Shown here one piece after another: positions 4,231 to 32,429 of a stretch of 64,000 nt of DNA. Positions within the stretch are counted from its first letter, which is position 1; each line of letters opens with the position of its first letter. The stretch comes from Okamejei kenojei. Taxonomy: Eukaryota. Where the stretch lies: the NCBI GenBank assembly GCA_035221665.1, contig CM069162.1, positions 16,306,001 to 16,370,000 on the forward strand, in the 5' to 3' direction. A program made the position numbers and the translations under genes. Below the pieces are notes generated by a model that worked only from the letters and a program-made list of their open reading frames with translations, was not told the DNA's origin and did not search any database.

Positions 4231-4760
4231 CCTTATGTATTGATTCTATACACTATAAATGGCTCAATTGTAATCATGTATTGTTTTTCTGCTGACTGGT
4301 TAGCACGCAACAAAAGCTTTTCACTGTACCTCGGTACGCGTGACAATAAATATATTAAACTAAAATTTGAAGCAGCTTTTCATGTCCTTAAAATAAATAA
4401 AGCAAACATTAGGACCAATGTGTGGTGACTGACTTGGGGCTCGTGTATCTCAAACTCGGCCACACCATCGCTGGTGCACCCGATGGTGGGGCCTGGGTCT
4501 GGGGTGCAGCAGCGGCAGCCCGGCCGTTGCCATGGCTGCAGACCTCCGCGGTCAGGGGAGAGCAGGCGGACTGGACGCACCAGTGCCGCGGGCCACGACG
4601 ACTTTCGCTTTCTTGCAGGGACATTCGTCGCCACATAACAGACCGACGGAGAAGTTATAAGTTATTCCACATCTCCCGGCCCATGTTATTCACTCACTCA
4701 CTCACCGAACGAACCAGACCCACGGGTCGGCACTGACGGCCCTGAGCCTGCGCACAGTGC

Positions 4761-5000
4761 GTTGCCGGGTCCGGCATTGGAGCATCCGCCCTTCGCGCCT
4801 GTCGCCGGGTCCGGCATCCGAGCCTGCGCACTGCGCACCCGTTGCCGGGTCCGGCATTGGAGCATCCGCACTTCGCGCCCGTTGCCGGGTCCGGCATCCG
4901 AGCCTGCGCACTGCGCCCCTGTCGCCGGGTCCGGCATCCGAGTCTGCGCACTGCGCACCCGTTGCCGGGTCCGGCATCCGAGTCTGCGCACTGCGCGCTC
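4761..5000. repeat. 40-bp GC-rich minisatellite, 6 copies plus degenerate flanking copies to about 5095
   Basis: Units start at 4761, 4801, 4841, 4881, 4921 and 4961, each beginning GT(T/C)GCCGGGTCCGGCAT. Confidence 0.95.
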
Positions 5001-5099
5001 ACAGCGGGACACGGGTCTGCGTTCTGCACGCTGATTGCCGGGCCCGGCATCCGAGCATGCGCATTCGTTGACGGGACCAGCACCCGAGCCTGCGCGTGA

Positions 5100-5158
5100 G
5101 CCGCCAGCTCACGTGGTTGCGGACGCCGGTTGTGCGATGGGAGAGCGAGCGGCCCCAG
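5100..5158 (+). other. ZBTB40: Candidate first exon of ZBTB40 (5' end unknown)
   Basis: Donor CCCAG|GTCAGT at 5158/5159 inside the CpG island; start coordinate is nominal. Confidence 0.5.
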
Positions 5159-5774
5159 GTCAGTGCCGGTCCGGGGAGAGTTTGTCCGTCCGTCCCTCCC
5201 TCGGCTGGCCACCGCCGCCCAAGGCCGGAGTCAGCTGTGTCCCCGAGGGTGCCGGCTCCCCTCACCACCCCCCTCCGCCCAGGCGGGAGCATGCCGTTCA
5301 GCCCCTCGCTGCACTGGACTGGACCGGCCCGCAGCTCCTGGCTGTGATCCTCAGCACTTCGACGCTGGGAGGCCCGGTGCTGGCAACAGGGCCCAGTTGC
5401 CCCGTCCCTATACTGCGAGCGAGCCAGCCAGCCAGCCCTCCACCCGGCCACTGAGGGGCCTGCAACCACCTGTGGGCCTCAGCCTCTGAAGGCCAACGAA
5501 CCATTCACCTTTTAATAGGTTTCGGTACTGTCTGTGACAGTTTAACCATATAATGCTTGGATGAATCCTCTTTTAACCTCTACTATGTACACCTTTCACC
5601 ACTTAGACCATACTCCAGAATCAATTTTAAGTACGAGGTCACATTGAAATCTGCCATCGATTTGTTGATATCACTATGCACTTTGTTATTGGCATTCTCG
5701 GTAAATTGTTATTCCAATTGTTTACAAATATTGTTATGGACCAATATCAATTAACACTGCCCTTGATTGTGAAA

Positions 5775-6894: not shown

Positions 6895-7654
6895 ATGGAA
6901 TTGCCAAACTACAGTGGGCAGCTCATGCAGCAACTGTATACCTTGAGGAAGGAGGAGCAGTTCTGTGATTGCACCCTATTCATTGGAAGCACAGAGTTTA
7001 GAGCACACAAGCTAGTTCTGGCTGCTTCCAGTTTGTTATTCAAATCTCTCCTGGATAACACGGACACAATTTCTATTGACCAGGCAGTAGTATGCCCAGA
7101 AGAGTTTGCTATCCTTTTGGAGATGGTCTACACAGGAAAGGTGCCTCCAGGAAAGCACAACTTCACAAAAGTTGTTTCTGTTGCAGATAATTTGCAGATG
7201 TTTGACATTGCTGTGAGCTGTAAGAACATCGTGGCAAGCTTGATGAAGCATACCGCGGCAAGTGAGGTGCGGGTTTCTATGGACGAAGTGGTGCAGCACA
7301 TAATCGCACAGAGTCCAGCTGGCACAAATTGGGTGGTGCAAGAGTCAGGCAAAAATGAAGAGTCTTGTACCACAAATGCTGAAGCCACAGTGGTTTCAGA
7401 CCAGAATATTTCTGTGCGAGGATTAAATTGCACTGGCAAAGTGGACTTTATGGATGCTGCACTTCCCTCTGATGAAAATACTGTGGATGCTGAAAAGGTT
7501 GAACCAAAACAAGATGGAGAGCACCAGGAAAATTTACCAGACAGAAGTGCTGATAACATCCAGGACATTAATAAACCATCAGATTGTATTGGAACAATCA
7601 ATGAAGAGATGGTTACTGAATTGTCTTGTGAAAAAGAGAAGCCTGTGGGCCCAG
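6895..7654 (+). CDS. ZBTB40: ZBTB40 coding exon 1: BTB/POZ domain plus acidic linker
   Basis: CACC-ATG-G Kozak context; FCDCTLFIGSTEFRAHKLVLAASS BTB motif; donor CCAG|GTACAA, phase 1. Acceptor at 6843 or 6847. Confidence 0.93.
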
Positions 7655-9312: not shown

Positions 9313-9398
9313 TACCCATTCACACCAGTTCCGTTATCCCACTTTCCTCACCCACTCCCTACACATTAGGGGCAATTTTACAGAGACAATTTAACCTA

Positions 9399-10111
9399 CA
9401 GTGGCTTGCAAAAGTTTCCAAACCCCTTGAACCTTTCCACATTTTGTCACGTTACAACCACAAACGTAAACGTATTTTATTGGGATTTTATGTGATAGAC
9501 CAACACAAAGTGGTGCATAATTGTGAAGTGGAAGGAAAATGATACATGGTTTCCAAATTTTATTACAAATAAAAAACTGAAAAGTGGCGTGCAAAAGTAT
9601 TCAGCCCCCCTGAGTCAATACTTTGTAGAACCACCTTTCGCTGCAATTACAGCTGCAACTCTTTTGGGGTATGTCTCTACCAGCTTTGCACATCTAGAGA
9701 CTGAAATTTTTGGCCATTCTTCTTTGCAAAATAGCTCAAGCTCAGTCAGATTGGATGGAGAGCGTCTGTGAACAGCAATTTTCAAGTCTTGCCAGAGAAT
9801 CTCAATTGGATTTAGGTCTGGACTTTGACTGGGCCATTCTAACACATGAATATGCTTTGAACCATTCCATTGTAGCACTGGCTGAATGTTTAGAGTCGTT
9901 GTCCTGCTGGAAGGTGAATGTCCGCCCCAGTCTCAAGTCTTTTGCAGACTCTAACAGGTTTTCTTCCAAGCCCTGGATTTGGCTCCATCCATCTTCCCAT
10001 CAACTCTGACCAGCTTCCCTGTCCCTGCTGAAGAAAAGCATCCCCACAACATGATGCTGCCACCACCATGTTTCACAGTGGGGATGGTGTGTTCAGGGTG
10101 ATGTGCAGTGT

Positions 10112-10115
<4 letters not shown>
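9399..10115 (-). mobile_element. Truncated Tc1-like transposon (IR/DR type)
   Basis: TA|CAGTGGCTTGCAAAAG terminus, internal direct repeat GTGGCGTGCAAAAGTATTCAGCCCC at about 9584, and transposase C-terminus WPSQSPDLNPIE..W...AKGGSTKY on the minus strand (9615-9878). Confidence 0.92.

Positions 10116-10116
<1 letters not shown>

Positions 10117-10156
<40 letters not shown>
10117..10156. repeat. (TA)n microsatellite
   Basis: About 20 TA units, directly visible. Confidence 0.95.
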
Positions 10157-10160
<4 letters not shown>

Positions 10161-11399
10161 ATAAATAAACAGATAAAATGCAATAGGCTGTTATTTTTCA
10201 GAGCTTGGAGTTTGGTTGTGGTGGGTCCACTCCACTTTAAATTCCATTTGGAATATTTTTGGAGGACCATGAAGCCAAGAAGCAAGAGTTACTCCAGGGA
10301 GTTACTCCAGCTCCAGGGAGTAATTCTGCGTTGGTTTTCAACGGTCGTGGTGAGGCGGCGACCAGACAGCAATGGCGGCCAGATCTCCCGCAATGCAAAG
10401 GGAGGGAGAAAGTGACCGACGCCGACCAGTTGCTGTGGCAGTGCGCTTGTGCAGGGCGGCACATGCGCACAACCACGGTCGATGATGTGCTGGCCCTGGT
10501 TGTGCGCATGTGCAGGGGGAGGATGTGCAGGCCGTGGCAGTGCGCATGCATGTATAAGGAGACCCGAGAGCCGGACACGAATGGCGGGCAGAGATAGAGA
10601 GTGACAGAGAGAGATAGAGAGAGGGCCCGCTCAGAATTAAACAATAGGTGTCCCGGGTACTTGCCAAGCCGGGTAAAATGGCATGGCTTTCAGGTTGCCC
10701 AGTGGGACTGTAGGTTGCCATTGGCACCCGTGCAACCGTTAATTTCGAGCCCAGAACAGTTGTCAATGTCTCACCTTTTCAGTTAGTTAAAACAAAAAAA
10801 TGTGTTTCACTCACTTAAATAGTACGGTTCAGGAGAATGAGATGCGTGGCAGGCTTGTCATTCAATGCCTCAGAGTAGCTTTGCAGCAATATTCTGAGAA
10901 TCAAGAATGCAGTATTTGAAAATTGATAGATCCAAGTAAAGTAATTTTCCAACAAAGTAGTTGAAGAGCTTCCAATAATTACATCTTTGTCATATTTCAA
11001 TGCCATTTCATCATTCTGTGTGGCATGGAAGGAAGGCCTTCAGTCCACAGAGCCTTTGCTGACTAAATCAACTGCTTTCCACCATTCACGCAAAAAAAAA
11101 CTTTCTTTTTTGCGTACGAATTATCAACATCCATCCCCAGAATTCTCCAACCACCCATGTCACTAGGGATAGTTTACAGTAGCCAATATCCCTCACAGTC
11201 AGTATATATTTGGGGTTTTGAACAAAGTGGGAGCATTCACACAGTGACACAGCTACACAGCTTGCAGCGCTATTATACCATGTAGTTTTATGATTTTTAT
11301 TTTGTTAGTTGCTATAGTGCACCTTATATGGTTCTGCAACTATAATGATTGTGTTGTAGTTTAAGGCAATGGATGGATGCAGATATTTTGTCTATAGAA

Positions 11400-12020
11400 G
11401 AACCAAAGATCTTTGTCAAGGCCCCTGCAATGGGCCCCATAGTTCATGGCATGCAGAGTAATCCTGCCATCACACTGCTAGAGATCCTGTTATTTAATTT
11501 ATTAACTTACTCCTTAAATTCTCCTTGCTCCTCATCTCCCTTCCTACCTGTGACGTTGGTACCAAAATGGACCACAGCCTCCCTCTGTTCACCCTCCCCT
11601 CTCAGAATGTCCTGTGCTCGCTGCCTTAACCTTGGCACCAGGGAGGCAACAGAGCCTCCTGGAGTCTTGCTTGGGATTACATAAATGCCTGTTTGTACCA
11701 CTGACTATGGCTCACCTAGATTGAACCCTACTTGGCTGTTCAGCAGAGCCAGATGTGGTACCACTGTTCTGGTTACTACTACTATTTTCCCCCTCCACAG
11801 TATCTAGAATGGTATCCTTGTTTGAGAGGAAGATAGCCACACGAGAATCCTGCACTACCTGTCTGCCTCTCCTGGTGGTCACCCATCTATCTTCCTGAAC
11901 CTTTGAAGTGACCACCTGCCTATAACTACTGTATATAAACCCTTTCTGCATCCTATAGCTTCTCAGTCTGCCCAATTGCTGCTCCAATCGATCCACTGAT
12001 GGACACACTTCCTGCAGTTA
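11400..12020 (-). mobile_element. CR1 LINE ORF1 remnant (esterase/SGNH-like)
   Basis: PGGSVASLVPRL...EAVVHFGTNVTGRK and WVTTRRGRQVVQDSRVAIFLSNK resemble CR1 ORF1. Confidence 0.75.
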
Positions 12021-12296
12021 AATGTATTTCATTATGCCAGTACTGCAACCAAGTTTCTACCTCATATGCTGTACAGTGCCATTCATTGCACCTCTCAGAA
12101 TCAACTCTAGGCGGATGGTCAATGTGTGTGTAATGGGAAAGTGTTTGTTATAATGGCTTGTTTGTTATAATGGATAGTTCATTTTACTTAAAGTTAACAG
12201 GTTTAGGGGATGTTAATCTTGGTTGTGTCAAATTTCATATGATTTTATCAGAATATTTTTCTTGAGTAGTGATGATTCCTTTGTCTTTCTGAGCAG

Positions 12297-12430
12297 AAGA
12301 TTCGAGGAATCTCACAGAACAGGAGTTCCTATTACTGCACAGACAGGATCTTGCAGAGGCCGTCCAAGACGTGCAAGGTTTAGTGGAATCTGTGACAAAC
12401 TGTGATGATATCCCATTGCCAGAGAAAACG
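12297..12430 (+). CDS. ZBTB40: ZBTB40 coding exon 2 (central module 1, first half)
   Basis: Acceptor ...tttctgagcag| (NAGNAG alternative start at 12294), open frame EDSRNLTEQEFLLLHRQDLAEAVQDVQGLVESVTNCDDIPLPEKT, donor ACG|GTATTG; phase 1-0. Not in the supplied ORF track in this frame. Confidence 0.8.
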
Positions 12431-13164
12431 GTATTGACACACACAATTTTAAAGAAATATCTTTATGTCTTTCAAATGTGATTGCTTCTCTGACACCCCC
12501 CCCGAGCACTGGTGATGTGGCTCTTGCCTGAGCATTAATTATCTTATTAAGATAATACTTGATCCTTTCCCATTGAACAATGAGGCAGACTCCCCACATT
12601 TTTATGTCACTAGCACAGGGTCTCAGACTGCATTGTTTTTTGTAGAGGTGGTAGTGCATAGATTTAGGAGTCAAAGGGGAAAGTGAGTTATTATTTTAAG
12701 CTATTTTGATTTTATTTAACGTATTTAATTATTTGTGTTTTTAGTTAACATTTAAAATTTTTTAAATGTTTTAATTAAATGTTCTTTTTTTATATCTTGA
12801 TAGTTTTAATTGTCTCTAACAATGATTACACTTGGCAAACCCAGTCTTCCACTTTGCCATTTGCCAGGGACATTTTGTGATGAGGATATCTTCATTGTAT
12901 TACGTGATACACTTGCCATCTAGTCCATGTACCAGGACTTTTGGGGTGAATGTCCAGCGATATAATCCTTCTGCATCTATAAGTGCGTCTATCAGTCCAT
13001 GTAAGTGTAGGTATGGATGGACAGCAGGTAGTGTTCCTGGGTGACCGGACAGTGTTCCAGGGACTGATAGAGTGAGATAGTTTGGATTGGGTTTGCATGT
13101 TCTAGCCCATTAAATCACCTGGATAAGATAAATATAACTTATGTACACCTATGTTCTATTTCAG

Positions 13165-13363
13165 GTTTTCTTAGACTGCTGTAAAGAAGCAGAAAGCAGT
13201 GAGGTTTTCTGCAGATTACTGGACAGAATTACAGAAGCGAAGACTTTGCAACTGGAAACCCTGTTATTTGTGCTTCAACAGAGTAAAGAAGCTTACCCCA
13301 GACTGAAAACTGTACTTCAGAACTTAAACCAAAATCTGCCCATAGAGCATTTAATGCTAACTG
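13165..13363 (+). CDS. ZBTB40: ZBTB40 coding exon 3 (module 1, second half)
   Basis: tttcag|GTT TTC; VFLDCCKEAESSEVFCRLLDRITEAK...AYPRLKTVL; donor CTG|GTGAGT; phase 0-1. Confidence 0.88.
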
Positions 13364-14920
13364 GTGAGTTTGCTTTAACAGCTGGTTCTGAACGTTGATT
13401 TGTTAAATTGGTGATTTCATATTCTATAATTTGAGTCAAGACTTTGTATCCTGCTAAGAGGAAGTTGAGCTGTAAAACTCGGGTACATAAAACGACACAA
13501 AGTGCTGGAATAACTCAGCGGATCAGGCAGCATTTATGGAGTACATGGCTAGTCTTACGAGTTTTTCCTTATCCACTCTTACTAAACACTTCTTTTTTTT
13601 TTTTCTGTATCTCAGTAACCGTGACAATAATGAACTAAGTTAAACTAATACTCTTCTGTTAAAACAGTCTTGTAGGTTCTGACATTGTTCCAGAAGGCTA
13701 CAATATAACTGATTTATTGCCTAAAGTGTTTAGTTATTTTCTTCGGTATTATAAGCGTCCATTTGTTAAGCCAACAAATCTTTTCACTTTTTAAGTGCTT
13801 ATCAATACTTATGAATTTTTATCTGATAGGAAAATAACAGCCCACATGCTGATAAGGCAAACAGAACTGCATCAGATTACTTCTGTGGCCTGCATTTATA
13901 CTACCTTCAAGGATTATCCATCCTTCTTTTCCTTTGCTTTTATGCCTTAACTCATCCAGACATAAACTCTGGATTAAACATTAAACCTCTCCATCTCTTC
14001 CCTCCTTGAGGACGTTGAATAAAATGTACCTGTTTTGGTCACCTGAAATAAGATCACAAAGCTACATTTTGTCTGATGTTGTTTCTTTGATGAACCTTGA
14101 GGCATTTTTACTTAATTGCACAATAATAAAATTATTGCCAGCAGTTAGATTGTTGGTAAAGTGTAATGGTAAATAAGAGTGAGATAATTTGATGCTTCCA
14201 CACTACCTGTATTGTATGCTCATATTATTCTCGGACAAATTGGCACACTATTGCTCTGCTTCTTTGAGTACTAGTTCAAACATTTAACTTTGTCAATGTG
14301 TGCACTTCCTATCCATAAACATATTTGCAATTGTCATTGTTTTGGGCCCTCCTTTATAGGTCAACATTGAATTTGCCTTTGTAAATAAATTACAGTGAGA
14401 GTTTCTGATACAAAGAGATCGATGTGAAAATGTTGTTGCAGATTCTGGCCAGTAGATGGTTGTACAGCTCTACTTTATTCTGTACCATTGCATCCAGCTG
14501 CCATGGGACATTGACTAATCTATCTAACTGTTTTATAACTAAAAGATTGTAAAAAAACATAATAGTTTTTGCAGTCTGGGAAATGTTTCCATTTTGTAAT
14601 CTGAATCAATATCCTGGATCTTCCTTTTAGAAGGCACTACCATACTGAGCAGAAACATGGGATTCCTTAGGGAGGGCATCAGTCCTAAATGTTTGCATAT
14701 GACCAGCACTCTTGGGCCAACAGCACCTTGCCATGGACTCGTCATTTGGACCTTAAATTTTGGCTAAGAAATTATGGGATCATGGAAAGTTTATGACACA
14801 GAAGGGCACCATTTGGTCTATCATGTCTAATATCTGTGAACTCTAGACTAATTCCAACTTACTGAAATAAGGCCATAGTATATACTAATTGGCTTTCAAG
14901 TACATGTCCAAGTACTTTAT

Positions 14921-16061
14921 TAGGGTATTAGGGGTTCAGTATTGATGTGGATTGAGAACTGGCTGGCAAACAGGAAGCAAAGAGTAGGAGTAAACGGGTC
15001 CTTTTCACAATGGCAGGCAGTAACTAGTGGGGTACCGCAGGGCTCAGTGCTGGGACCCCAGCTATTTACAATATATATTAATGATCTGGATGAGGGAATT
15101 GAAGGCAATATCTCCAAGTTTGCGGATGACACTAAGCTGGGGGGCAGTGTTCGCTGTGAGGAGGATGCTAGGAGACTGCAAGGTGACTTGGATAGGCTGG
15201 GTGAGTGGGCAAATGTTTGGCAGATGCAGTATAATGTGGATAAATGTGAGGTTATCCACTTTGGTGGCAAAAACAGGAAAGCAGACTATTATTTAAATGG
15301 TGGCCGATTAGGAAAAGGGGAGATGCAGCGAGACCTGGGTGTCATGGTACACCAGTCATTGAAAGTAGGCATGCAGGTGCAGCAGGCAGTGAAAAAAGCG
15401 AATGGTATGTTAGCTTTCATAGCAAAAGGATTTGAGTACAGGAGCAGGGAGGTTCTACTTCAGTTGTACAGGGTCTTGGTGAGACCACACCTGGAGTATT
15501 GCGTACAGTTTTGGTCTCCAAATCTGAGGAAGGACATTATTGCCATAGAGGGAGTGCAGAGAAGGTTCACCAGACTGATTCCTGGGATGTCAGGACTGTC
15601 TTATGAAGAAAGACTGGATAGGCTCGGTTTATACTCTCTGGAATTTAGGAGATTGAGAGGGGATCTTATAGAAACCTACAAAATTCTTAAGGGGTTGGAC
15701 AGGCTAGATGCAGGAAGATTGTTCCCGATGTTGGGGAAGTCCAGGACAAGGGGTCACAGCTTAAGGATAAGGGGGAAATCCTTTAAGACCGAGATGAGAA
15801 AGACTTTTTTCACACAGAGAGTGGTAAGTCTCTGGAACTCTCTGCCACAGAGGGTAGTTGAGGCCAGTTCATTGGCTATATTTAAGAGTGAGTTGGATGT
15901 GGCCCTTGTGGCTAAGGGGATCAGAGGGTATGGAGAGAAGGCAGGTACGGGATACTGAGTTGGATGATCAGCCATGATCATATTGAATGGCGGTGCAGGC
16001 TCGAAGGGCTGAATGGCCTACTCCTGCACCTAATTTCTATGTTTCTATGTTTCTATGTTTC
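14921..16061 (+). mobile_element. Young 5'-truncated CR1 LINE (RT C-terminus, 3' UTR, tail)
   Basis: Uninterrupted 338-aa frame with SGVPQGSVLGP, KFADD and RPHLEYCVQFWSP; (TTTCTATG)n tail; 8-bp TSD TACTTTAT (14913-14920 and 16062-16069). Confidence 0.96.
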
Positions 16062-17234
16062 TACTTTATAACTGATGAGGATTTCTGCCTGTATTACCCT
16101 TGACAGCAATGAATCTCAGTCATCTTCTGGCTGATTAATATACTCCACAGAAGAGTACAGAAGTAAACCTGAACTAAAGTAAATTCATATCAATGAGAAA
16201 ATATGCTAGAGGTTGTAAAAGCTAATAAATCCTCAGGTCATTATAATTTGCATCCCAGGGTACTAAAAGAGGAAACTGTGCAAAGAACGGATGAATTGGT
16301 CATCTTTATCCAGAATTCTATAGATTATGGAATAGTTCCTCAAGATTGAAGAGTGATAAATATAATTCCACTATTAAAAAATGAGTAACAAAAAACTGCA
16401 GATCAACTATCGATTAGTAGTGGGGAAAAATGCTATATTTAAATCTATTACATTTGTTTTGGAAAATGTTGCTGGTAAAATAGATGAGAGACGCAGTATA
16501 TATTATGTACTAAGGTTTTCAAAAAGCTTTTGATAAAGACACACAAAAGGTTATTATGCAAAATAAAAGAGCATGGCATTGGGATAATTGCTCGGATTGA
16601 AAATTGGAGACTTACTGTGACAGTAAGTGAGAATAAATTGCTCTATATTGGACTGACGGGCACTATTAGGAATATTTTGAAGCTTGCTAACAAAGTTAAA
16701 CAGAGAGGAGTTACACTGTGAGGAGGATGTCTCGTGGCTTTAAAGTATACCTTGTCGATCTTGCCCACTACATCCAGGGTGCTGATGTGGATTTTCTTCT
16801 GTTGCTTGATGTTCAGTTCCATTCACAACTTACTGGTGTCATTTCACTTATTTATAGTTCGTATGCTTCGGCAGATCTTTACATTGATGGGTTGCAGACA
16901 AATAATAATGATCAAATTGAGTAGGCATTTAAATGTTGAAATCTACAGCCTTCAATGTCTTTTATCCACTGTATTTCAAGTGGGCAGTAGTTTCAAGTTT
17001 CTCTATTACACAACCTTTACACAAAGAATCAAAATGTCTGTGTTACTAGAGAGAATATAAATAGTATTAACGGTGCCTTTTATTAAACTGTTCATCTTGT
17101 CTTTACAAAAGTTGGATGTGCCTTAATAATTGTATTGAGATGGTAGACTTATACTTTACATAAGTATTCCCAGTGTGCTTGAAATGGCTATTTATGAAAT
17201 AGACGAAGAAAAATAAAATTGTATTTTCATATTG

Positions 17235-17540
17235 GTTTTTGGGTTCACAAGGTATCTCAAAGTGCTTCGTAGCTAATGAAGTACTTCTGCAGTATAGTCA
17301 CTGTTAGAATGTAGGAAATATGATAGCCAATTTTACGTATGGAAAGATAATGTGATAATGACTAAATGATCTGTTTAATGATGTTAAATTAATGTTAAAT
17401 ATTAGCTGTGCCATTCTTCATAACGCCCTTGCACTTCAATACAATAGTGCCATGGGACCTTTTACATCCACATAAGCAATGGGCTTATGTGGATGTAAAT
17501 GTCTTATTCAATAGGTTGTGCCTCCCACAGTATCAGTATT
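17235..17540 (-). mobile_element. Ancient Deu-domain SINE relic (SacSINE1/AmnSINE-like)
   Basis: Reverse complement reads ...AAATTGGCTATCATATTTCCTACATTCTAACAGTGACT...AGTACTTCATTAGCT..., resembling the DeuSINE 3' region as recalled; related copies at 19555-19690 (-) and 48340-48470 (+). Confidence 0.6.
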
Positions 17541-18678
17541 GGTTTATTATTTCTTGTGTACTGAGAAGGAGTGAAAAGGTTTGATTTGCTTGCTTTCCAG
17601 GCAAGTCATACCATACAAGAGTATATCTGGTAGAGCAAAAAAGGAAAATAACCAGAGTGCAGAATAACCAGTCCAGAGTACAGAATTATAGTTGTTACAG
17701 CTATAGAGAAAGTACAGATTTAAAAAAAAAGTGCAAGGGCTACAAGGAGGTAGGTTAGAAGATTGGGAAGATCAAGAAGTGCAGCACTCCCTCATAAATA
17801 TTCTTTATGTCGGCATAGATTTTTGTGCTAAATTCCCTGGCATTTGATGTTCCAGATTTGATACAAGTGTGTTACCTCCAACTATGTGCATGCTGCTGCA
17901 CATTGACAGAATGGAATAATAAGTGCTTTCATCATCTTTCAGAGATGCACACCGTTGAGACATTGTGCATGCACAAACTAGGAATGGGCTCAGGCAATTT
18001 GAATCCTCAATCCGGCTTTCACATTTAGTAAGATCACAGCTTACCTGATTGTGACGTCAACTTTGTGTTCCTATTTATCTTGCATCCCACAGCTATCTAC
18101 ATCTGAGGCGCACTGCCTCCACACTTCGGAATGTGGATACTGGCTGACTACACAATGTTAAGTTCTATTCAGAACTACTTATTGGCATGGACATTTGCAT
18201 GGTTTTCACAGATTTATAAAGAGTGTGGGTTGGCAGACTAATGTTGTGATGCTTAATTGAGCAAGGAGTCTAATTTCAAAGCAAGTTATTCTTAGACCAA
18301 GTCCAAATTTTTATCTTCTCCTGGCGAAGATGCACATTTGTGCAGGATATCCACGTTGACTAAATGAGAGAGAGCAAATGAATTCATACGATACTTAGTT
18401 ACTTTAATTATAAAGTAGAAACTATTGCAAATCTTCAGTGGGTCTATGGATGGAGAAGCAGAGTCAACATTGCAGCTTCTTTCAGCTGAGGTAACATCAA
18501 ACTATAATGTTAACTGTGCCTGTTTCTCCACAAGTGCTGCTTAAACCTATAAGGATTTCAAGTATTCTGTTTTAAATCAACTTTCTAGTATTTACATTAA
18601 TTTTCTCAAGATACATCCATTGATCTTATCTAATTTTGTATAAAAAATCTTTACTCATTGACTGTTTCTACCATGTAG

Positions 18679-18818
18679 GCCGTATTGACACAGAAGATTT
18701 TTTGCTCAATCTTTATTTACACAAAGACGAGTTCTTGGAATGCGTGACAGATTTGAGTCCTTTATTGGCGTGTCTTGAGTCTGCTGAGGAAACCATTTTC
18801 AATGAAGAGGAGAAAAGG
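18679..18818 (+). CDS. ZBTB40: ZBTB40 coding exon 4 (module 2, first half)
   Basis: atgtag|GC; GRIDTEDFLLNLYLHKDEFLECVTDLSPLLACLESAEETIFNEEEKR; donor AGG|GTAATT; phase 1-0. Confidence 0.85.
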
Positions 18819-19038
18819 GTAATTTTTCTAGATTATTTATTTATCCTTTTCTGGTTATATTCTGAGTGCAGGTAGATGGGACTAGGGGAAAACAAATGGA
18901 CGGCATGGACTTGAAGGGCCGAGAGGGCCTGTTTCCGTGCTGTAATTGTTATATGGTTATATGGTTATTTACCGTTCGCTCAGAGTTTTTCTTGTTACTA
19001 ACAAGAAATCTAGTCACGGTAAACATATTGATATTTAG

Positions 19039-19231
19039 GTGATTGCGGAATGCTGCGAAGGAGAGACACCCAGAAATGCCATGGCTAAGTTATTGAGGAA
19101 AACAATTGAAGAGAGACAATTAAGTGCTGAGACTGCACTAAATCTTCTTCAAAAAATGAAAGAGGTTTACCCTGTTCTACAGTCATTACTAAGGACTCTC
19201 ACTGAAGAACCAGGAATAACTACAAAGTCAG
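19039..19231 (+). CDS. ZBTB40: ZBTB40 coding exon 5 (module 2, second half)
   Basis: tttag|GTG; VIAECCEGETPRNAMAKLLRKTIEERQLSAETALNLLQKMKEVYPVLQSLL; donor CAG|GTTAGT; phase 0-1. Confidence 0.9.
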
Positions 19232-19289
19232 GTTAGTTACATCAATTCCCTTCATGATTCTGATTATTCGTATATTTCCATAATATTCG

Positions 19290-19552
19290 CTCCCTTTCTC
19301 TCGGTGGCTTTCCCTGCAAACCCAGGAGGTGCAAAACATGTGCCTTTTACCGTTTTCCTTCCCACCATCCAGGGATTAGTGTAACAGCAATTCACTGCTG
19401 TTCATTCCAATTTAGTGCATTGCATTTGGTGCTGAGAGCGAACAACCAGCTCCTCTAGTGTACAAACCAAATGCAAGTTGGGTGACAGCCTTGCCAAATG
19501 CCTCTATTCAGTCCAGAGTGATGACCCTGAACTTCTGGTTGCCCACTACTTT
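19290..19552 (+). mobile_element. Degraded Penelope GIY-YIG fragment
   Basis: Nucleotide similarity to the Penelope copies at 8480-8600 and 38180-38450. Confidence 0.6.
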
Positions 19553-20749
19553 AAGGTAGTCACTAATGTAATGTAGGAAACATGACAGCTAATTTTATGC
19601 ATGGAACGATAAAGTGATAATGACCAAATAATCTGTATAATGCTGTTAAATTAGTGATAAATATTGGCTGTGACATTCTTGGTACCTCCCTTACACTTTT
19701 ACAAAATGGATGTAAAATGTAGACATTTTATATCTGCACAAGAAAAGTTTGGTCCTCTTTTTAGTGTATTATTCAATGCCACCCATAGAATTGGTATTAT
19801 TTTATTATCCCATTCCAACTTGGACCCTTCTGTCTTTGGTCTCGTACACTGTTCCGATGAATCCCACAACCGGCATCCCATCTTCTGATTGGATATATTG
19901 TAACCATCAAGACTCAGCATTGAATTCAACAATTTCAAAGAACAAGATTCTATCAGGATTGACCAGTTTCGATCAAACCATGAAACATTTTTTTTTCTCT
20001 CTTGACTTAAACTGCCTGATTGAGTATCTTTATTCTCTTTCTTATCAACCTACTAACATTTTTGCAATTCCAGTATTGTTTTCCTCTTTCTTCTGCATTC
20101 TCATTCATTTTCATCTTCACTCATCTCATCCAGACAGATCAGCTGCTCTTTACAAGCCTCCATCACCCTTTATCTACAGACACCACCTCCACTCAGAGAG
20201 ATGTACAGCATAGAAACAAGCCCTTCGCTACACCACATACACACTAGCCTTTTTGCACATTAATCAATTTGCATGCAGCCACAGCAATTTTCTGTCATTT
20301 AGGCTTTCGTGTACTCCGCTCTATCACAGAAGGTTCATTTCTTTTCTCCACCTCTCCTACCTCTGCAGCTGAAAACATGTTTGATTTTGAATTTATAATC
20401 TTATAAGATTTACTCTCTTCTCATAGTGACTGCCTGGTCTATTGAGTATTCCCAGAATTTCTGTTTTTAATTATTTCAATAAAAATGGTTCTTTTTCAGT
20501 GAAGCACTTCCTGACAGAGTGGTTTAGCCTAATTCATGAGAGTAGTCTGTGACACTAAAACCCAAAACATGAATAGTAAGAAAGGAACTGCTAACCCATC
20601 AAACTATATCAGTAAGCAAAGAACACTTTATTGTCTTGTTTAGCGATATATATGGATGTTTGTACAGCATCATTATGCAGAATGTGCGGCATATCATATT
20701 ACTGCACAACTTCATCAATGTTTGGACGGAGTTTATACGTGAGAATAAG

Positions 20750-22945
20750 GTTCCAAATGGTAAACTTCTCTGGAAGGTTTGATCGCTTGGGATCCAAGGA
20801 GAAATAACCGACTGGATATAGAATTGGCTTTATGGAAAGAAGCAGAGGTTGCTGATGGAGGGTTGTTTTTTTCGACTGGGGACCTTTGACTAATGGTTTG
20901 CCTCGGGGATCAGTGCTGGGCCCTTTGCTGTTTAAGGTTTATATCAATGATTTGGATGAGAATGTACAAAGCATGATTAGTAAGTTTGCAGATTAAACAA
21001 ATGTGGTTGGTATCATAGTTGGCAAAGATGGTTATGAAAAAGTGATATATAGGAGCTTGTGTGGGCAGCCAGGGCTCACTGTTCCACCATTCAGTGAGAT
21101 CATGGCTGATCATCTCATGACATTACTTCCACTTTCTTGCCTAATCCCAATCACCATTAGTTCTTATAAAGTCTAAAAATCGATCTCATCCCTGATTACC
21201 ATCCCTAGTAATGTAATCTTCACAGTTACCTGCGTTAGAATTCCAAAGATTCACAGCTCCATGGAAAAAAGAAACTCATCCGTTCCACGTGCAATAGAAG
21301 CCAAAGACCCATTTGTTTTCCTCATTGTTTGTGTACCTTGTATTGTGTTCTTGAAATAAAATTATAGCAATTAAGTAGACAGCAGTGGATAAAATGAAAG
21401 CACTGGGTGAAGAAGAAAGGAACTAGCTGGGCACCAGAAATATTTTTGTTTTCTTTACTTTTGCAAATAGAAAACAATAGACGTCTAATATAAGCAATTA
21501 AGTATTTCAGATTAGTAATGATTAAGTTTCAGTAGTAACCTTAATTTTAACCTTAAACACAGCAGATTTAAGAAGTTACAACTATTATCTCCTTTGCTAT
21601 CCTCTGGTAGACCATGCAAGGTCCTGGGTCAATCCCTTCCCACCCTCAGTCTCCCCCCATCCTGTGCAGTTTTTAAAATGTGGATCATGATTCAGTTTAA
21701 TATCCTGTGGGGTAACAATTGTTATTTTTAACTTTATTATAAAGTTTTGGGAACTGATGAGCATGCTAAAAAAGGAAATTAGGAGGGCAAAAGTGAGAGG
21801 GGAGATAGCTCTGCAAGGTAATATTTAAGGATAATCCCATGAGATTTTATGTACATGCAGGGAAAAGGGGTAGCCAGAGAGAAAATCGAGCTTCTCAGGA
21901 ATCAGCTCTGGAACCACAGAAGATTTGCAAGGTTCTCTATGGGTATTTCTCCTTGTTTTACCATGGAGAAAGACATGAGGACTGGGAACTTGGGATAGTC
22001 AATAGAAGTGTCTTGAGGGCAGCCAGTATTACGGTCGAGGAGATACTCAAGGTCCTAAAGTGTATGAATATAGACAAATCTCCCTGGTCTGAAAGGATAT
22101 ATCCGAGGACACTGGGGAGCTAGGGAGGAAATTACAGGTGCCCTGGATGAGATTTAAGAGTTGCCATTAAATACGGGTGGGGTGCTGGAAGACTGGAGGA
22201 TGCAGTCTGTATTAAAAAAGGACTGCAGGGAAAAGCCTGGCAACTACAGGCCAGTGAGTCTAACATCTGTGGTTGGAAAGTTACTAGAGAGTACTCTGAT
22301 GGATAAGAGATGTGTGTATTTAGATGGACATGGGCTGATTAGGAATAGTAAGGATGGTTTTGTATGTGGGAGATCATTTATCACAAACCTTATTGAGTTT
22401 TTTCAAGATGTAACCAAAACGGTGATGAGGGCAGAGCTGTAGATGTATATTTGACAAGGTTCCTCAAGGTAGACTGCTCTGGAAGGTCAGATCGCATGGG
22501 ATCCAAGGAGAGATAGCCGACTGAATAGAAAATTGGCATCATGGAAGGAAGCAGAGGGTGATGGTGGATGGTTGTTTTTTGACTGGAGGCCTGTGACTAG
22601 TGGTGTGCCTCAGGGTTCGGTGCTGGGCCCATTGTTTGTCATCTATATCAATGATGAGAACAAATTAGCAAGTTGGTAAATTAGCCTAAACTAGGTGATA
22701 TTGTAGATGGTGAAGATGGTTGTCAAATATTACAGTGGGATCTTGATCAGTTGGGCTAAGGAATGGTTGGTGGAATTTAATACAGAGAAGTGCGAGGTGT
22801 TGCATTTTGGGAAGTCTAACCAGGGCAGAATTTCCACAGGCAGGGTTCTGGGGAGTGTTGTGGAGCAGACGGATTGAGGAATGCAAGTACATAGCTCCTT
22901 AAGAATGGTGTCACAAGTAGATAGTGTGGCCAAGAAGGCTTTCGT
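20750..22945 (+). mobile_element. Two degraded CR1 ORF2/RT fragments (about 20750-21060 and 21760-22945)
   Basis: KPGNYRPVSLTSVVGKLLE and ACTAGTGGTGTGCCTCAGGGTTCGGTGCTGGGCCC (SGVPQGSVLGP), with stops. Confidence 0.85.
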
Positions 22946-23411
22946 TACAGCCTTTCTGAGATTCTGCACTCTTCCCTTGTATGGCCTCCTGTTTATCCAT
23001 AAATTCCACTACTTCACCATTTGCAGTCTGCCTGAAATTTCTTCTACACCTTTTGGCATCTCAGCCTCTACCCTCTCTCAAAATAGTCCCTAATATTGTT
23101 TGCTTGGCCAGGCTTTGGGTTATTTGCCTTCATATCTCCTTATGTCAGGTAATATATTTTATTTTATAATAATCAAGTGAAGCCATTGGGACCTTTAAAA
23201 TATACTTGTGTATTAAATATTTGATAACTTTTCAGTGTCAGTCGTTCCTACAATGTGGCTAGAATTTTTTATTTCCTTCTACTTATGAGGCACCATTTTT
23301 ATAAAATCTTAAAACAATTATGTCAATACAAGTTATTGTTTTGGCTGTACTTCATAGCATTGTTAAATGGGTTATTGATAATTTAACTAAATATGTTTTT
23401 ATTCTGGGCAG

Positions 23412-23548
23412 GGGTGAAAAACCTTGAAGATTGTGCATTTGACTTGCTCAGGAGATATCAAGAGAATATTGTTGATGTGGTGGTTGAGCTTCAAACCCTG
23501 CACAATGTCTTGTCTATTTCAGAGGATATATCTGATGATGACAAACAG
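23412..23548 (+). CDS. ZBTB40: ZBTB40 coding exon 6 (module 3, first half)
   Basis: gggcag|GG; GVKNLEDCAFDLLRRYQENIVDVVVELQTLHNVLSISEDISDDDKQ; donor CAG|GTGTGT; phase 1-0. Confidence 0.85.
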
Positions 23549-24682
23549 GTGTGTTTTTTTTTAATATGACTAAGCATGATATTGTATCTTAATAGTTTTA
23601 GATTCTTGATGTATTGGTAGATATGCTTTTGTTAATTTTTCCATACAATATAATCAAGAGAGAGCCCTCTTTAACCCCTTTTCATTCACCTTCTGTTTCT
23701 AGTTCCATCCACCTACTAGCAACACATTTCGTCCATCTTCTGCCCTCCATCTCATCTGGCTCTGGTTCCATCTGCCCTTCACCTCGCCCTATATTCTCAT
23801 TGTCATTGTCTTTAAGTATCCAATTCCAGCACTGGATGCCTTTGTGTTCACGATGAACATAAGATCATTAATGATAGGAGTAGAATTAGGCCATTCAGCC
23901 CATTGTCTACTAAGCCATTCAATCATGGCTGATCTATCTCTCCCTCCTAACCCTATTCTCCTGTCTTCTCCCCATAACCTCTGATGATTGTCCACTTGTC
24001 TGATTCCACCTTCACCTTCCCCATATCCTACCTGACTCCATCTGCCTTTTTCTTTGTCATCTGTTGCCATCCATCACCCACTTGCCTTTGTCTCCCAACT
24101 CCCAAATGATGATTCAATAATGTCCCTTAGTGGGTCTGGCCGATGTGCGACTCCAGACTCACAGTAATTTGATTGACTGTTAACTAGCCTCTGAGGCAGC
24201 CTAGCATGGAACCTTGTTCAGGAGTAGTTATGGATGTGCACAGCTATTGGCCTTTCCATGTCCATCTGTTGTGGAAGAGCATCTCAGAGTTGGTGCCATT
24301 GTTATAACTGGCTTTTATTCAATCAACTGCAGTAGAAGGATACATGCCGATGAGATCGGATCGAAAAAGCAAAATGCAGAGGGGTTTAATCCTTTTAGAT
24401 ACAACAACAATACATTGCAGGTGATTGGCAACATGTCTGATGTGATGGTGACCATTTTTGGTGAGGCTAGTCAGGCAGTGTAGAATCTGGGATGTCAGAG
24501 AGTCTTAGATGCAGTACAGGTGTATTTCAGTGGTGCCAAATTGCTGCACTAACCCATATCCCTTGTTTCCCTTACAATTCAAAATGTATTGCTATTTGTC
24601 TTGAATATACCAGTGACAGTTTCTATGTAGATCTCTTGCATCGAGAATTGCAAAAATTCTAAATGTTGTTGTAGACCCTTGT

Positions 24683-24985
24683 TTAGAGGTACAGAATGGA
24701 AATTGGCCCTTCAGCCCACCGAGTCCTTGACGACCATAAATCACCTGTTTACACTAGTTCAAAGTTATCCCATTTCCTGCAAGCTAAGGAGCAATTTACA
24801 GAAGTCAATTAATTAACAAACCTGCATGTCTTTGGGATGTTGGAGGAAACTAGAGCACCCTGAGGAATCCCACACAGTCACCTTGGCAGAACGTGCAAAC
24901 TCAACACAGAGAGTACCAAAGGTCAGGATTAAACCAAGGTCCCTGGCACTGTGAGGAAGCAGCACTACCAGCCCTAGCTGCACCA
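24683..24985 (-). mobile_element. HE1-like tRNA-derived SINE
   Basis: Reverse complement of the family seen at 29158 and 34945. Confidence 0.8.
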
Positions 24986-25586
24986 CCTTTTCCAGACACT
25001 CTGGCAAGAGGAATCTTCACCCCAGAATCTGTCCTATTAGACTCCTTAGATATTTGTTATTTCAATAATATAACCCCTCATACTAGAGAATAAAAGGCAG
25101 TCTGCTTAATCCCCCCTCATCCCTCCCCCCCCCCCCTTCCAGGAATCAACCTGGTAAGCATGTATTGTTGCATATTTTCAGCCCAACCTCTGGTATAATG
25201 TAAAACAAAATTAACCCCTTGAGAAACAAAACTTGTGATGTGTAGCTTTTAGTTCAATTTTAGTAAAGGCATGCAGTTTCAGTTGAATTGTTATTAATTT
25301 TCATTAAAGTCCGCAGTGAATTCTCCACGAGTAAAATACAGCTGGTGAGTAGCAGCAGTAAACTTGACATTTTTTTTCTAATCTTCATTAAATGCTCAGC
25401 AAGTAATTCCTCCAGCGCAGTGCCAACTTCTTAGTTGCTTTAGTTGCTATGATACCATACAAAGCAGCCAGTCAAATGCAACGCATACTTGTAAGCACTG
25501 ATGCTTCATTGTTAAAAGTGCACGTTGATAAGATACTTTGTGCATGTTAATATAATTTAATCTTTAATATTTTTTGCCATTGACAG

Positions 25587-25785
25587 AGAATTGAAGATCT
25601 TATTAAAGAAAAAGATGTGGTGAATTGCGCAAATAAGTTGATGGAAGCAGTGTTAGAGAAACAAACGCTGGCAGCACTCACTCTATGGAAAGTGCTCTTC
25701 CGAATGAAAGAGGATGTGCCAAAGCTGTGCACCCTGCTGGATGAACTCCAAAAAGAACCAGATGGTCTCCGACTCATTTTATCAG
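25587..25785 (+). CDS. ZBTB40: ZBTB40 coding exon 7 (module 3, second half)
   Basis: tgacag|AGA; RIEDLIKEKDVVNCANKLMEAVLEKQTLAALTLWKVLFRMKEDVPKL; donor CAG|GTGAGG; phase 0-1. Confidence 0.9.
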
Positions 25786-27291
25786 GTGAGGCTTTTGTGC
25801 AGTGGTCCTGGAATTAGTACATTTTTTAAATAAATAACACATTTAATGTTAGAATTGGTGGCTCCTAAGTGCTGTTTAAAAAAAAAACATTGTAAAAGGA
25901 GTTGATGGCTTACAATAAGTGTGATTAAGTGTTAGAGTAATTGACTGGTATGTTAGAACCATCGCGGCTGGATATTGTAATGGGAACTTCTAACTATGGC
26001 AGCCTGTGTTGCATCTGTAAACTGTTTGTTTTTAGAAGCTTGCATAAAAGAGCTTGCCTTATGCACCAGTAGAAACCTGGTAAAAAAAATTAAAGTTATG
26101 CATTAACATGAATAGGAAATAATAAGGCAAGAAAATATATCAAAGATTTAATTATGTCTTCATAAGTAAATGAATTAGGAATGAAATTTGATCATAGCTT
26201 CCACCTCAATAATGAGGTGGTGTCATGATGGAATTGATGAAGCAGACTTTTCCCATTTTCATTGATCCGAGCAATACATTGGGATATGAAACCATCACGA
26301 CAAATAAGTGTCCTTTGAGAATGTTTTTACATCTATTAATGCAAGCCTACATAGATATATATAGACAATAGGTGCAGGAGTAGACCATTCGGCCCATCGA
26401 GACAGCACCGCCATTCAATGTGATCATGGCTGATCATCCACAATCAGTACCCCATTCATGCCTGCTCATAGATACATAGACAATAGGTGCAGGTGTAGTC
26501 TAGGAAGTTGAGAAACTAATAATCTATAGACAGGCAAGTTATGGAAGCAGCTTTGTGTAGTTGTAGGTGGGTATAACTGTGCAACACAGATTACAATAAC
26601 TGCTGTGTATTTGTAAGAATGGCTGTTTTAGTGGAAGTTAGGGATTCTCATGTGTGCATTCATTAAAACTGAAAACATTGATATTATAACCTTCAAGCTT
26701 TCTGTAGTTCATTTATGATTAGTGTTATTCTTTATAGAGATAACATTAATGTTCTGTAGAAAGCAATAATAATTTTTAAAAATATTATTGGTCATTTATG
26801 ATTAGTCTTTATAGAAATAGCATTAATCATTAAGGTTCTGCAGAAAGCAGTGACAATTTAAAAAATATTTAGATGGGTGATTTTAAAACTGCTTTTAAAA
26901 AAATGTATTTGTCTGCCTTCTTCGATCTCTCACCCACCTATGTCTGTCTCCCCTCTCTCACCTGGCTCCATTTGCCCGCCATCATTCACCCCTATAAGGT
27001 CAACCAGTCACCTTCTGGCCCATGCCACACCTCTCCCTCTCTCTTTTAGACTGACCATCTTCCCTCTACAATCTCAGTCCTGATGGCAGGGTCTCAACCT
27101 CAAACCTCTTCAGCTCCTTCCCCATCACAGATGCTGCTTGACCACGAGTTTCTTGAGCAGGTTGTTTGTTGCTATAGATTTTTAAATTACTGTTGACGCT
27201 GTCGGAAATTCTTTCATTTTCTGTTGATTTTTTAACTTGGTTGTGTGGTAATTCTTCTCATTCCCCCCCCCCCCCCCCCCCCCCTCCCCAG

Positions 27292-27428
27292 TGAGTGATG
27301 AGGAAAGTAAAGCCTTCAGTATTTTAAGAAAACACAGACAGTTGATCATCAATGGAATTGAGGACATCAGTCCACTGCTGGACTGTTTGGTGCCTGGTGT
27401 AGAAAATCTTCCCGCTGAAACAATTGAG
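27292..27428 (+). CDS. ZBTB40: ZBTB40 coding exon 8 (module 4, first half)
   Basis: Poly-C tract then cag|TG; VSDEESKAFSILRKHRQLIINGIEDISPLLDCLVPGVENLPAETIE; donor GAG|GTAATT; phase 1-0. Confidence 0.88.
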
Positions 27429-29157
27429 GTAATTTTTGTTCACACTTTAACTATCTTGATGCAGAGGTTTATTGCCTTTTCCATTACCTTAATACATTTG
27501 AACCACTTTGACTTTGACAAATATATCACTGAAATCTCATGTGAAGGATGCAAAGCATTATCTGTTGTTAAGTGAAACATAATAAGCTTGGGATAATGTG
27601 ATCAGTAATATTTTTTGGAAGGAAATTGTTAATATTATTTTCTTAGTCAAATAGCAAAAGAAGCAGGTTTGGAGATACAAATCTAAAGTATTAAAGGGGC
27701 ATCACTGGCAAGGAGGTATATATGGTACAACATGTTTATGTAGGCAGATTCATTCGTCAACTTTACATGGGAGAATACAACTAGAAAAGCTGATACAAAA
27801 ATGTACCAAATAGTGTCAGAGGATTGGCAATGTTACAAACTGATATGTACAGATTTTCATTAGTTGGTTTTCTTGATTCCAATTCTCTCCTCCCCCACCT
27901 AGCCTATAAGAAGGGTCCTGACCTGGAACATCACCTATCCATGTTCTTCAGAGATGCTGCCTGACCTGCTGAGTTATTCCAGCAATTTGTGTCCATTTTT
28001 GGTATAAACCTGCAACTGCAGTTTATTTTATATTAAATTAGATGCCACTTACCATTTGCAACTTTTTGCAATGTGGTTCTGGACGCAGTATTTTGCTAGG
28101 TGGCAGTGTTCTTGCAGGCCCATGAAGCGTAACGCAGAGGAGGGGCTGACTGCTGTCACCAGACAGTTGCACTCACAGAAAAGCTTGTCCCAATATACAA
28201 CAGACTTGAGAATCATTTAAAAAAATAATCTTAGAGTAATTACAATTATTTTTTCTAAAACAAATAGCATGTAAAAAGCACACACCCATGAACAGAATAT
28301 TTAACCAGCATAGTTGCATTAAACAATAGGCTTTTCTAATGATAAACAATTTCTATCATTCATTTAATGATAGTGCCTATGGCAGGTTTAGTTTGAGTCG
28401 GAGGACGAACTGGATTATCGTAAGCGCCTGATTTATCAGTAGTTGGCCACAATTGTTAGTGGCGAAGCTTCTTGACGAATAAATAACTCTATCATTGTCA
28501 AAGTGGAAGTAGGGTTGTGCAAACTCTTTGTGTGAGATTGCACATTCACTTTCTTAATATTTTAGATGAATGGCTTTGCAACATTAGGTCAGTGACCCTT
28601 CATTGTTGAAAATATTATGAGGTGTAAGTGAGATTTCCTGCATGCATGGATTGTGTGCTTTCAGGGAATGTTCCAGCACCATCACAGATGTAAGTGAAAG
28701 ATCCATCAGCATCAGATGTACTGATTGGTGTGAGCAAAGGTCTCAGCAGCATCACAAGAGTTTCTGACAAAAATAAAATGAAATATTATTTGTACTCAAT
28801 AACCATTTTTCCAATAGAATCTCGTGCATTTTGTAATTTCAGCATTTTACTGGCATTTCCATTAGTTTTGCTAACATTTTCTAATATAAAAGCAAGTGCA
28901 TGTATTTTGTACTTGTTGAATTAAAGTCTCTCTTGCTATCACAGGTGTAGGTTGCATTATGGTAAAAGTCCTTGCATTGTGCAAATAGCATTTCTTGTAT
29001 GTTCTGTTTTGTGATACAGTACCACATCACTGTTGATAAAAGAATGGGATTCTTCCATCTGTTTCAGTCAATTCCTGGGACAGATTCAAGGCCCATAATT
29101 TTTATGTGAAATTAATAGAGAGATGCTTTTACATGTGGTGGGGTAGTCAGACAAGAG

Positions 29158-29457
29158 TCAGCACAGTGGCACAGCTAGCTGGGAGAGCCGCTGCCTCACA
29201 GCACCTGAGACCCAGATTGGATCTTGGGTGCTGTCTTTGTGGAGTTAGCAAGTTCTCCCTGTGACTGTGGGTTTTCTCTGGGTGCTCTGGTTTCCTCCCA
29301 CATCCCAAAGCAGGTTTGTAGGTTAATTGACCTCTATAAATTGCCCCTAGTGTGTAGGCAATGGATGCAAAAGTGAGATAACAGAGTAGTGTGAACAAAT
29401 GACCAATGAACGGCGTGGACACAGTGGGCTGAAGGGCCTGTTTCCATGCTATATCTT
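29158..29457 (+). mobile_element. HE1-like tRNA-derived SINE (V-SINE type)
   Basis: tRNA-like head GCACAGTGGCACAGC...GCTGCCTCACAGC, core GTTCTCCCTGTGAC...TTCCTCCCACATCCCAAAG, CR1-like tail GGGCTGAAGGGCCTGTTTCC. Confidence 0.85.
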
Positions 29458-29873
29458 GCAATCCATTAATCATCTAGGAAATAGGGCAGCAAAGGAAACA
29501 AATGGTGAACAATAATGCATTCCCACCACCTTTAGATAAAAAAAAACACCTCAATTAATAGGTGATGTGAATCGATAGAGACCACATAATTGCAATTTCC
29601 ACAACACGCAGTTAACTGTCTGTCACCTTCTGCAAAGTATATTGACGCTAAAAAATAAGAATAGTTTACATAATTTATACTAGAGTTATACAAAAATGCA
29701 GGAGAATTAGTTCAAGGAGCTGAGTAGTTATAGTTTATATTGACCTGACTAATTATTCAGTGCTGTGGCAGGTTGAGTGTATACATTGAGTAGATTTTTG
29801 ATATGCACTAAAAATATATATTTTTAAATTCTCATGAATTATTTGCATGGTTTATATTTCTTCCCACTGTCAG

Positions 29874-30045
29874 ATTTTGAAGAGCTGTTGTTTCAAGGAT
29901 ACTGCTGGTCAGTCACTAGAAAGTATTCTGGGCAAAATTCTAGAAGAACGGCTCGTTCCTGCCCTGGTGTTTTGTAAACTCTTGCATATGATCAGTGAGT
30001 CCCATCCGTCCCTTGAATTGGTAATGAAGACAATGGAACATGCAG
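29874..30045 (+). CDS. ZBTB40: ZBTB40 coding exon 9 (module 4, second half)
   Basis: tgtcag|ATT; ILKSCCFKDTAGQSLESILGKILEERLVPALVFCKLLHMISESHPSLELVM; donor CAG|GTAACT; phase 0-1. Confidence 0.9.
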
Positions 30046-32006: not shown

Positions 32007-32429
32007 GACTATTGAAAGAAGCAATGAGTGATCTGGAAGAGGATCAAAAGGAATATCCAATGGATCAGGAAGAGAGAAGTGAGGAAGATGGGGATCACCC
32101 TGATGGCACTGGCCATGTCAAGGAAAGTAGCGGTGATCCAGCAATAGATCCGATGAAGCCAAAGCACAAACCCCGAGGGAAGCAGGACTTTTCCTGTTCT
32201 GCATGTGGCAAGACTTTCATGTTTAAATGTCGCCTTGAGCTACACCTCACCCGCTGTCGCAAGATTGGTCCGCTTAAAACCATTAACTGGGAGGAATGTG
32301 AAGAGACTAGGACTTCCCAAAAGGATTTAGAAAATCCACGAGAAGATGTGCATGTTGCACCAAAGGGAAAGAAGAGAAGGCTGCCAGTTTCTTGTGACAT
32401 CTGCGGGAAGTCCTTTGCTCACCAGTCAG
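32007..32429 (+). CDS. ZBTB40: ZBTB40 coding exon 10: acidic linker, C2HC finger, degenerate finger, start of the C2H2 array
   Basis: tattag|GA; CSACGKTFMFKCRLELHLTRC; basic KGKKRR stretch; CDICGKSFAHQS; donor CAG|GTTAGA; phase 1-1. Confidence 0.93.

Follow-up and report, generated by a model that had tools for sequence, protein, structure and literature searches.

Here, we report that ZBTB40 of the skate Okamejei kenojei, the single gene in a window of 64,000 nucleotides (nt) (assembly GCA_035221665.1, contig CM069162.1, positions 16,306,001 to 16,370,000), encodes between its BTB domain and its zinc fingers four tandem units that, as judged from structure models, almost certainly fold as CARD-type death folds. 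By profile score and intron position, the nearest kin of these units are the CARD of the nuclear regulator AIRE and a two-exon CARD of shark and ray NLR proteins, and the three families probably form one cassette lineage. The death-fold call itself is not new, having previously appeared in print as an uncommented and incomplete automated annotation. What is new here is the count of four, the ancestry and the kinship to AIRE and the NLR family, although both the count and the link between the cassettes may already have been described elsewhere.

The 17 coding exons (6895 to 50772) encode 1250 amino acids (aa) with one terminal stop, and the protein is identical to the NCBI model of Leucoraja erinacea ZBTB40 at 1202 of 1250 positions (96%). 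It has the N-terminal BTB domain and the C-terminal C2H2 array of a ZBTB40 orthologue, and Pfam matched PF00651 (BTB) and PF00096 (C2H2) in the ortholog. This order of BTB, four units and C2H2 fingers is not that of the AIRE/SP100 family, in which a single N-terminal CARD is combined with SAND, PHD or bromodomains; nor is it an NLR protein, as no NACHT or LRR domain occurs in the 17-exon ZBTB40 or its orthologues. Coding exons 2 to 9, for which the original prediction gave exact coordinates, all carry AG/GT signals and join in frame, in pairs that are flanked by phase-1 introns and divided by a phase-0 intron. They make up four symmetric 1-0-1 two-exon cassettes of 103–112 aa, namely R1 (aa 254–364, 111 residues), R2 (365–475, 111), R3 (476–587, 112) and R4 (588–690, 103). 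The mutual similarity claimed for these units is evident, since all six pairs scored above 2000 of 2000 shuffles (z 6.8–16.2; 17–30 identities over 86–100 columns). The junction of exons 4 and 5, inside R2, is bridged exactly by contigs from two of four public runs (GT..AG, 220 bases skipped), which are only guessed to be RNA, one being marked 'probably DNA' and none recorded as RNA; runs X5 and X9 had no coverage of the compared exons. For the remaining junctions, support comes from splice signals and from 19 shark and ray models in NCBI/UniRef. One low-depth contig showed a minor joint from exon 4 to 19013, 25 bases upstream of the main acceptor; this joint would shift the frame. At the exon 4–5 junction, the Heterodontus model is four residues longer.

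AlphaFold2 models the four units as four six-helix bundles with a broken first helix, and a further prediction had a predicted local distance difference test score (pLDDT) of 90.6. Structure searches with the predicted units returned death folds in nearly all top rows, led by CARDs with middling Z scores; SP100 was top or tied, the CARDs of APAF1, MAVS and ASC tied at the top and those of RIG-I were also present. A predicted unit superposed on solved CARDs over the whole domain. ESM Atlas matches of 0.80–0.82 in CARD clusters lay below the lead threshold and were not used. The best PDB sequence match of the units was the NOD1 CARD (E 0.003). Among eight shark and ray ZBTB40 proteins, Pfam HSR (PF03172) matched six, always at R1, and passed its cut-off in three, with R1 of Rhincodon and Mustelus (two species) above it and the Leucoraja ortholog and R2–R4 below. 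Profile similarity to the Death clan, which had been proposed as a check, is therefore present, but the companion check against Pfam CARD (PF00619, 23.9-bit cut-off) failed: the cut-off was reached by none of the eight whole proteins, two of 12 units matched weakly (best E 0.013), and at E 0.001 none of 12 bony-vertebrate ZBTB40 records or fragments matched. Of the proposed NOD1/ASC/NLRP1-type identity the likeness to CARDs holds, whereas the closest relatives are found in AIRE and the NLR two-exon CARD instead. That a generic helical bundle has come to resemble a CARD by convergence is highly improbable in the face of the near-exclusive return of death folds, the HSR scores above the cut-off in two species and an intron codon and phase that the units have in common with two CARD families. 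In addition, an independent pipeline assigns DEATH to ZBTB40 at 0.89–0.999 in its supplementary table (PMC11874512).

That table also settles the question of novelty, which the original prediction had left to be verified. Novelty of the death-fold call is not supported, because Table S1 in the Supporting Information of the DPAM/ECOD atlas (Wu et al. 2025, PNAS) lists DEATH domains in ZBTB40, three each in human, mouse and zebrafish and two in rat (PMC11874512). The human rows, 236–330, 346–450 and 456–570 (PMC11874512), correspond to R1–R3 of gorilla at 236–332, 346–445 and 458–556. Compared with the present analysis the atlas is automated and, in the portions accessible, gives three domains, no subfamily, no fourth unit and no evolution; its authors caution that the list contains false positives, such as RECK, and the main text never names ZBTB40 (no match to 'zbt') (PMC11874512). 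In experimental work this stretch of 440 residues is treated as a 'long mid domain' without a name (PMC10480536), and a mid-domain deletion construct was made in a study in the Journal of Biological Chemistry. No paper on CARD or death domains of ZBTB40 was found in the open literature, with subscription journals, InterPro, TED and bioRxiv supplements outside the search. The accessible part of a 2026 ZBTB40 paper contains neither 'death' nor 'AlphaFold', and ZBTB40 is missing from the main text and six supplementary files of a survey that covers 109 human death-fold domains and is presented as exhaustive. In the same open literature nothing was found that treats AIRE, cartilaginous fish, CARD evolution and NLR jointly.

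A word-based homolog search from the skate region returned sharks and rays only (19 proteins), and the bony-vertebrate relatives come from further searches. The order R1-R2-R3-R4 is found in coelacanth, gar, newt, frog and milkfish, and four position-orthologous units are present in 118 of the 120 amniote records listed, among 359 matches, which bears out the conservation across jawed vertebrates that had been proposed. Two motifs of human ZBTB40 had been named in this connection: LLRRY.EN is present in gorilla and chimpanzee, while AVLEKQTL is present in gorilla and missing from the chimpanzee record. In both apes R4 lies at 570–665, and partial human records cover R1, R2 and half of R4. In a tree of 56 units from 14 species the units form one group (support 97/96) within which R1, R3 and R4 are each grouped and R2 is not resolved; a smaller tree separates all four positions. 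Bony-vertebrate units are 21–43% identical to those of the skate, the linker on the BTB side less so (14–22%), and the BTB domain and fingers more so. Whole units are absent from some database gene models, as distinct from transcripts: R2 from four of 19 shark and ray records, and R1 from platypus and bat isoforms. A loss of R1 in mammals was rejected, as it rested on two platypus isoform models and wider amniote records carry R1. No invertebrate or jawless-fish protein with a unit was identified, which is no proof of absence as only 14 of the 35 profile-search matches were named; three of the 35 (P0051, P0053 and P0054, ankyrin or LRR repeat proteins) were dismissed as chance. Among the unusual models, that of lungfish (P0024) has 1740 aa, about 20 zinc-finger matches and three units, and the newt model (P0022), of 1602 aa, has a much lengthened linker behind the BTB domain.

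An HSR-family search of the skate genome gave, as a lower bound, two exons of one AIRE-like gene, whose CARD by eye closely resembles that of human AIRE, and no SP100-like match. The second related family, the two-exon NLR CARD, had 128 exon matches in the genome, the leads to it including a weak profile-search match (P0052). NACHT exons follow it in two of the three downstream stretches read, and it has exon A of 167 nt and exon B of 172 nt in six of six spliced modules. These CARDs are not among the 27 PF00619 matches in the genome, and standard CARD scans therefore miss them. Of the PF00619 matches, 16 were used as single-exon domains and five were spliced into three domains. The comparison excludes L006 and L017, which are truncated or contain a stop, and the first-half matches L024, L027, L028 and L030, which extend beyond the ZBTB40 intron position. 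In one unguided alignment the mid-domain intron occupies the identical column, in phase 0, in the four ZBTB40 units, the AIRE-like CARD and all six NLR modules. The intron lies 3, 5 and 15 columns later in the CASP9-, APAF1- and CARD11-like genes, respectively, and the 16 single-exon CARDs read through the ZBTB40 position. Exon B of R4 shares both its length of 172 nt and its end column with the NLR modules, and exon B of the AIRE-like gene measures 175 nt, its phase-1 intron being one codon away from that of R4. Against a joint profile of the units, the AIRE-like and NLR CARDs outscored all other skate CARDs by about 10 bits.

A neat assignment of the units to one of these relatives is not favoured by all of the data. 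Position-specific profiles split, with R3 strongly NLR-like, R4 AIRE-like and R1 and R2 weakly NLR-like, and the NLR profile scored 34.0 bits for R3, 15.7 for R2, 4.7 for R1 and −0.1 for R4, with unrelated CARDs reaching 16.1. The ZBTB40, AIRE and NLR families fall on one side of a branch supported at only 87/76. A specifically HSR/AIRE-type identity was rejected because the NLR module has the same intron and scores as high. From sequence, one cassette lineage for the three is probable and not proven.

The original prediction had the array bind inflammasome or apoptosis CARDs (ASC, RIPK2, caspases) and so couple death signalling to chromatin. The match to NOD1, the tied APAF1, MAVS and ASC folds and the likeness of R3 to the shark NLR signalling CARDs, far above the next CARD outside ZBTB40, lean in this direction. 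Partners of the ASC, RIPK2 and caspase type are, however, mainly cytosolic; PF00619 is not reached, and in the caspase-9- and APAF1-like CARDs the introns lie elsewhere and the scores are low. ZBTB40 is seen in nuclear foci (PMC10480536). Such coupling is accordingly very improbable, and ASC, RIPK2 or caspase CARDs as partners are not supported by anything in this analysis.

By analogy with AIRE, we tentatively place first a role of the array in multivalent self-assembly, in which the units that lie between BTB and the zinc fingers may cluster ZBTB40 in nuclear foci. With the fold predicted, we infer the steps of origin and binding as follows. A symmetric phase 1-0-1 CARD cassette, kin to those of AIRE and the shark NLR family, would have entered a BTB-zinc-finger gene and been quadruplicated before sharks and bony fish split. 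Dimerisation, a general property of the BTB family, would bring eight CARDs together. Weak contacts between CARDs could then sum where many ZBTB40 molecules bind repeated DNA, with valency tuned by dropping a whole unit, and the resulting clusters would be the nuclear foci on chromatin, in the manner of AIRE CARD action. Self-assembly is ranked first because the nearest nuclear relatives act through CARD multimerisation (PMC7118133; PMC13649554), ZBTB40 forms telomeric and PML-associated foci (PMC10480536), and apart from AIRE the skate genome shows no evident conserved CARD partner, the HSR search being a lower bound.

The ZBTB40 units are net acidic in 55 of 56 cases, while among other skate CARDs only 4 of 26 are at −4 or lower, and in the database models whole units are missing at the level of lineages, lizards having R2 and R4, Astyanax R1 and R4, pike R1 and the lungfish model R2–R4. 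Acidity, modest conservation and tolerated losses together bring up a close second, in which CARD folds were repurposed as a non-polymerising helical scaffold of units packed against one another, with R3 and R4 as a rigid pair, and with partners other than death folds, such as co-regulators, ubiquitin or basic chromatin proteins. Conservation mainly of core hydrophobic positions, of R2 and of the R3–R4 linker would agree with this, as would the linker models, in which R3–R4 is predicted helical (pLDDT about 75–83) and the other two fall below 50. Such a scaffold is possible but doubtful, given that four separately diverged units are held in order across most jawed vertebrates, that the solved nuclear relative polymerises and that no partner is known.

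The array might also be a heterotypic dock or cap that limits nuclear CARD assemblies of the SP100 family and AIRE at PML bodies, as SP110 limits SP100. PML bodies are a site of ZBTB40 colocalisation, and those associated with alternative lengthening of telomeres (ALT) become more numerous when ZBTB40 is lost (PMC10480536); the place of SP100 among the structural matches and an acidic surface that would suit an acceptor are compatible with this. In contrast, the total number of PML bodies is unchanged in the knockout (PMC10480536), the SP110 pull-down enriched only BAG2, SENP7 and SP100 in the data accessible (PMC13649554), and with one AIRE-like gene as the yield of the HSR search (a lower bound) no SP100-type partner is evident in skate. 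A dock or cap is thus rather unlikely. More broadly, ZBTB40 could stand for a third, so far overlooked class among the nuclear regulators with CARDs, with a mobile two-exon cassette, the same as in AIRE and the shark NLR sensors, captured and quadruplicated at the origin of jawed vertebrates and an array that either polymerises or caps SP100-type filaments, thereby controlling chromatin foci and ALT-associated PML bodies, and with valency set by cassette skipping. As a whole, this synthesis is speculative and on balance doubtful.

Features of the skate ZBTB40 window and related CARD loci elsewhere in the skate genome
Feature	Position	Strand	Remark
CpG island; 40-bp GC-rich tandem repeat (4760-4998)	4501..5500		GC 0.68-0.70, CpG observed/expected 0.73-1.05
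Coding exon 1: BTB (aa ~16-112) and poorly conserved linker; phase 1 end	6895..7654	+	
R1 exon A, helices 1-3a, phase 1 to 0	12297..12430	+	
R1 exon B, helices 3b-6 and linker, phase 0 to 1	13165..13363	+	R1 matches Pfam HSR in sharks
R2 exon A	18679..18818	+	
R2 exon B	19039..19231	+	R2 is the best conserved unit toward amniotes
R3 exon A	23412..23548	+	
R3 exon B and conserved R3-R4 linker, predicted helical	25587..25785	+	R3 closest to shark NLR CARD
R4 exon A	27292..27428	+	
R4 exon B, 172 nt	29874..30045	+	R4 is not listed in the 2025 atlas
Coding exon 10, with an acidic linker and the first zinc fingers	32007..32429	+	
Coding exons 11-13, C2H2 zinc-finger array	36667-36873, 39090-39254, 42161-42375	+	
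Coding exons 14-16, C2H2 zinc-finger array	43194-43356, 44629-44715, 48058-48275	+	
Last coding exon with stop codon	50569..50772	+	
AIRE-like CARD, two exons (L002, L003)	G000:C14:27999064-28001134	minus	HSR-family search
NLR CARD modules L031-L055	e.g. G000:C620, C10, C40, C581, C662, C869, C29		

The CpG island upstream of the first coding exon is probably the promoter or a non-coding first exon of ZBTB40, and it contains a minisatellite of about six copies (TRF period 40 x 5.9). Fragments that, judged by their motifs, are reverse-transcriptase-like (long interspersed element, LINE) and transposase-like are found in introns and downstream (14924-15955, 9618-9932, 53002-53583 and 58812-59999), and a short high-copy repeat lies at about 18850-18970.

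ZBTB40 has been linked to bone density, male fertility and telomere control, and the gene is poorly understood; four CARDs would provide a direct and testable handle on it. With them, nuclear assembly through CARDs would no longer be confined to AIRE and the SP100 family. The common exon cassette suggests that the CARDs in a tolerance regulator, in an expanded shark sensor family and in a transcription factor have a single origin.

Among known systems, the HSR-type proteins AIRE, SP100, SP110 and SP140 (PF03172) resemble ZBTB40 in carrying a CARD in a nuclear regulator and in a reported link to PML bodies, and the skate AIRE-like gene shares the mid-domain phase-0 intron and is the top-scoring kin by the joint profile. 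That family has one N-terminal CARD with SAND, PHD or bromodomain readers, whereas ZBTB40 has four internal acidic ones, of which only R1 of some sharks passes the PF03172 cut-off. The shark and ray NLR CARD has the same phase 1-0-1 cassette, the identical mid intron and an exon B that ends at the R4 column. Its copies are many, near-identical and followed by NACHT, in contrast to the anciently diverged copies of ZBTB40 (about 20–33% identical), which keep a fixed order and of which R1 and R4 score near zero on the NLR profile. Several death folds per chain are also present in RIG-I/MDA5, in the two-CARD protein NOD2 and in caspase-8 with its tandem DED, and the RIG-I CARDs were among the structural matches. 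The modules of these cytosolic signalling proteins are N-terminal and come in two copies, while those of ZBTB40 are internal, four in number and part of a transcription factor.

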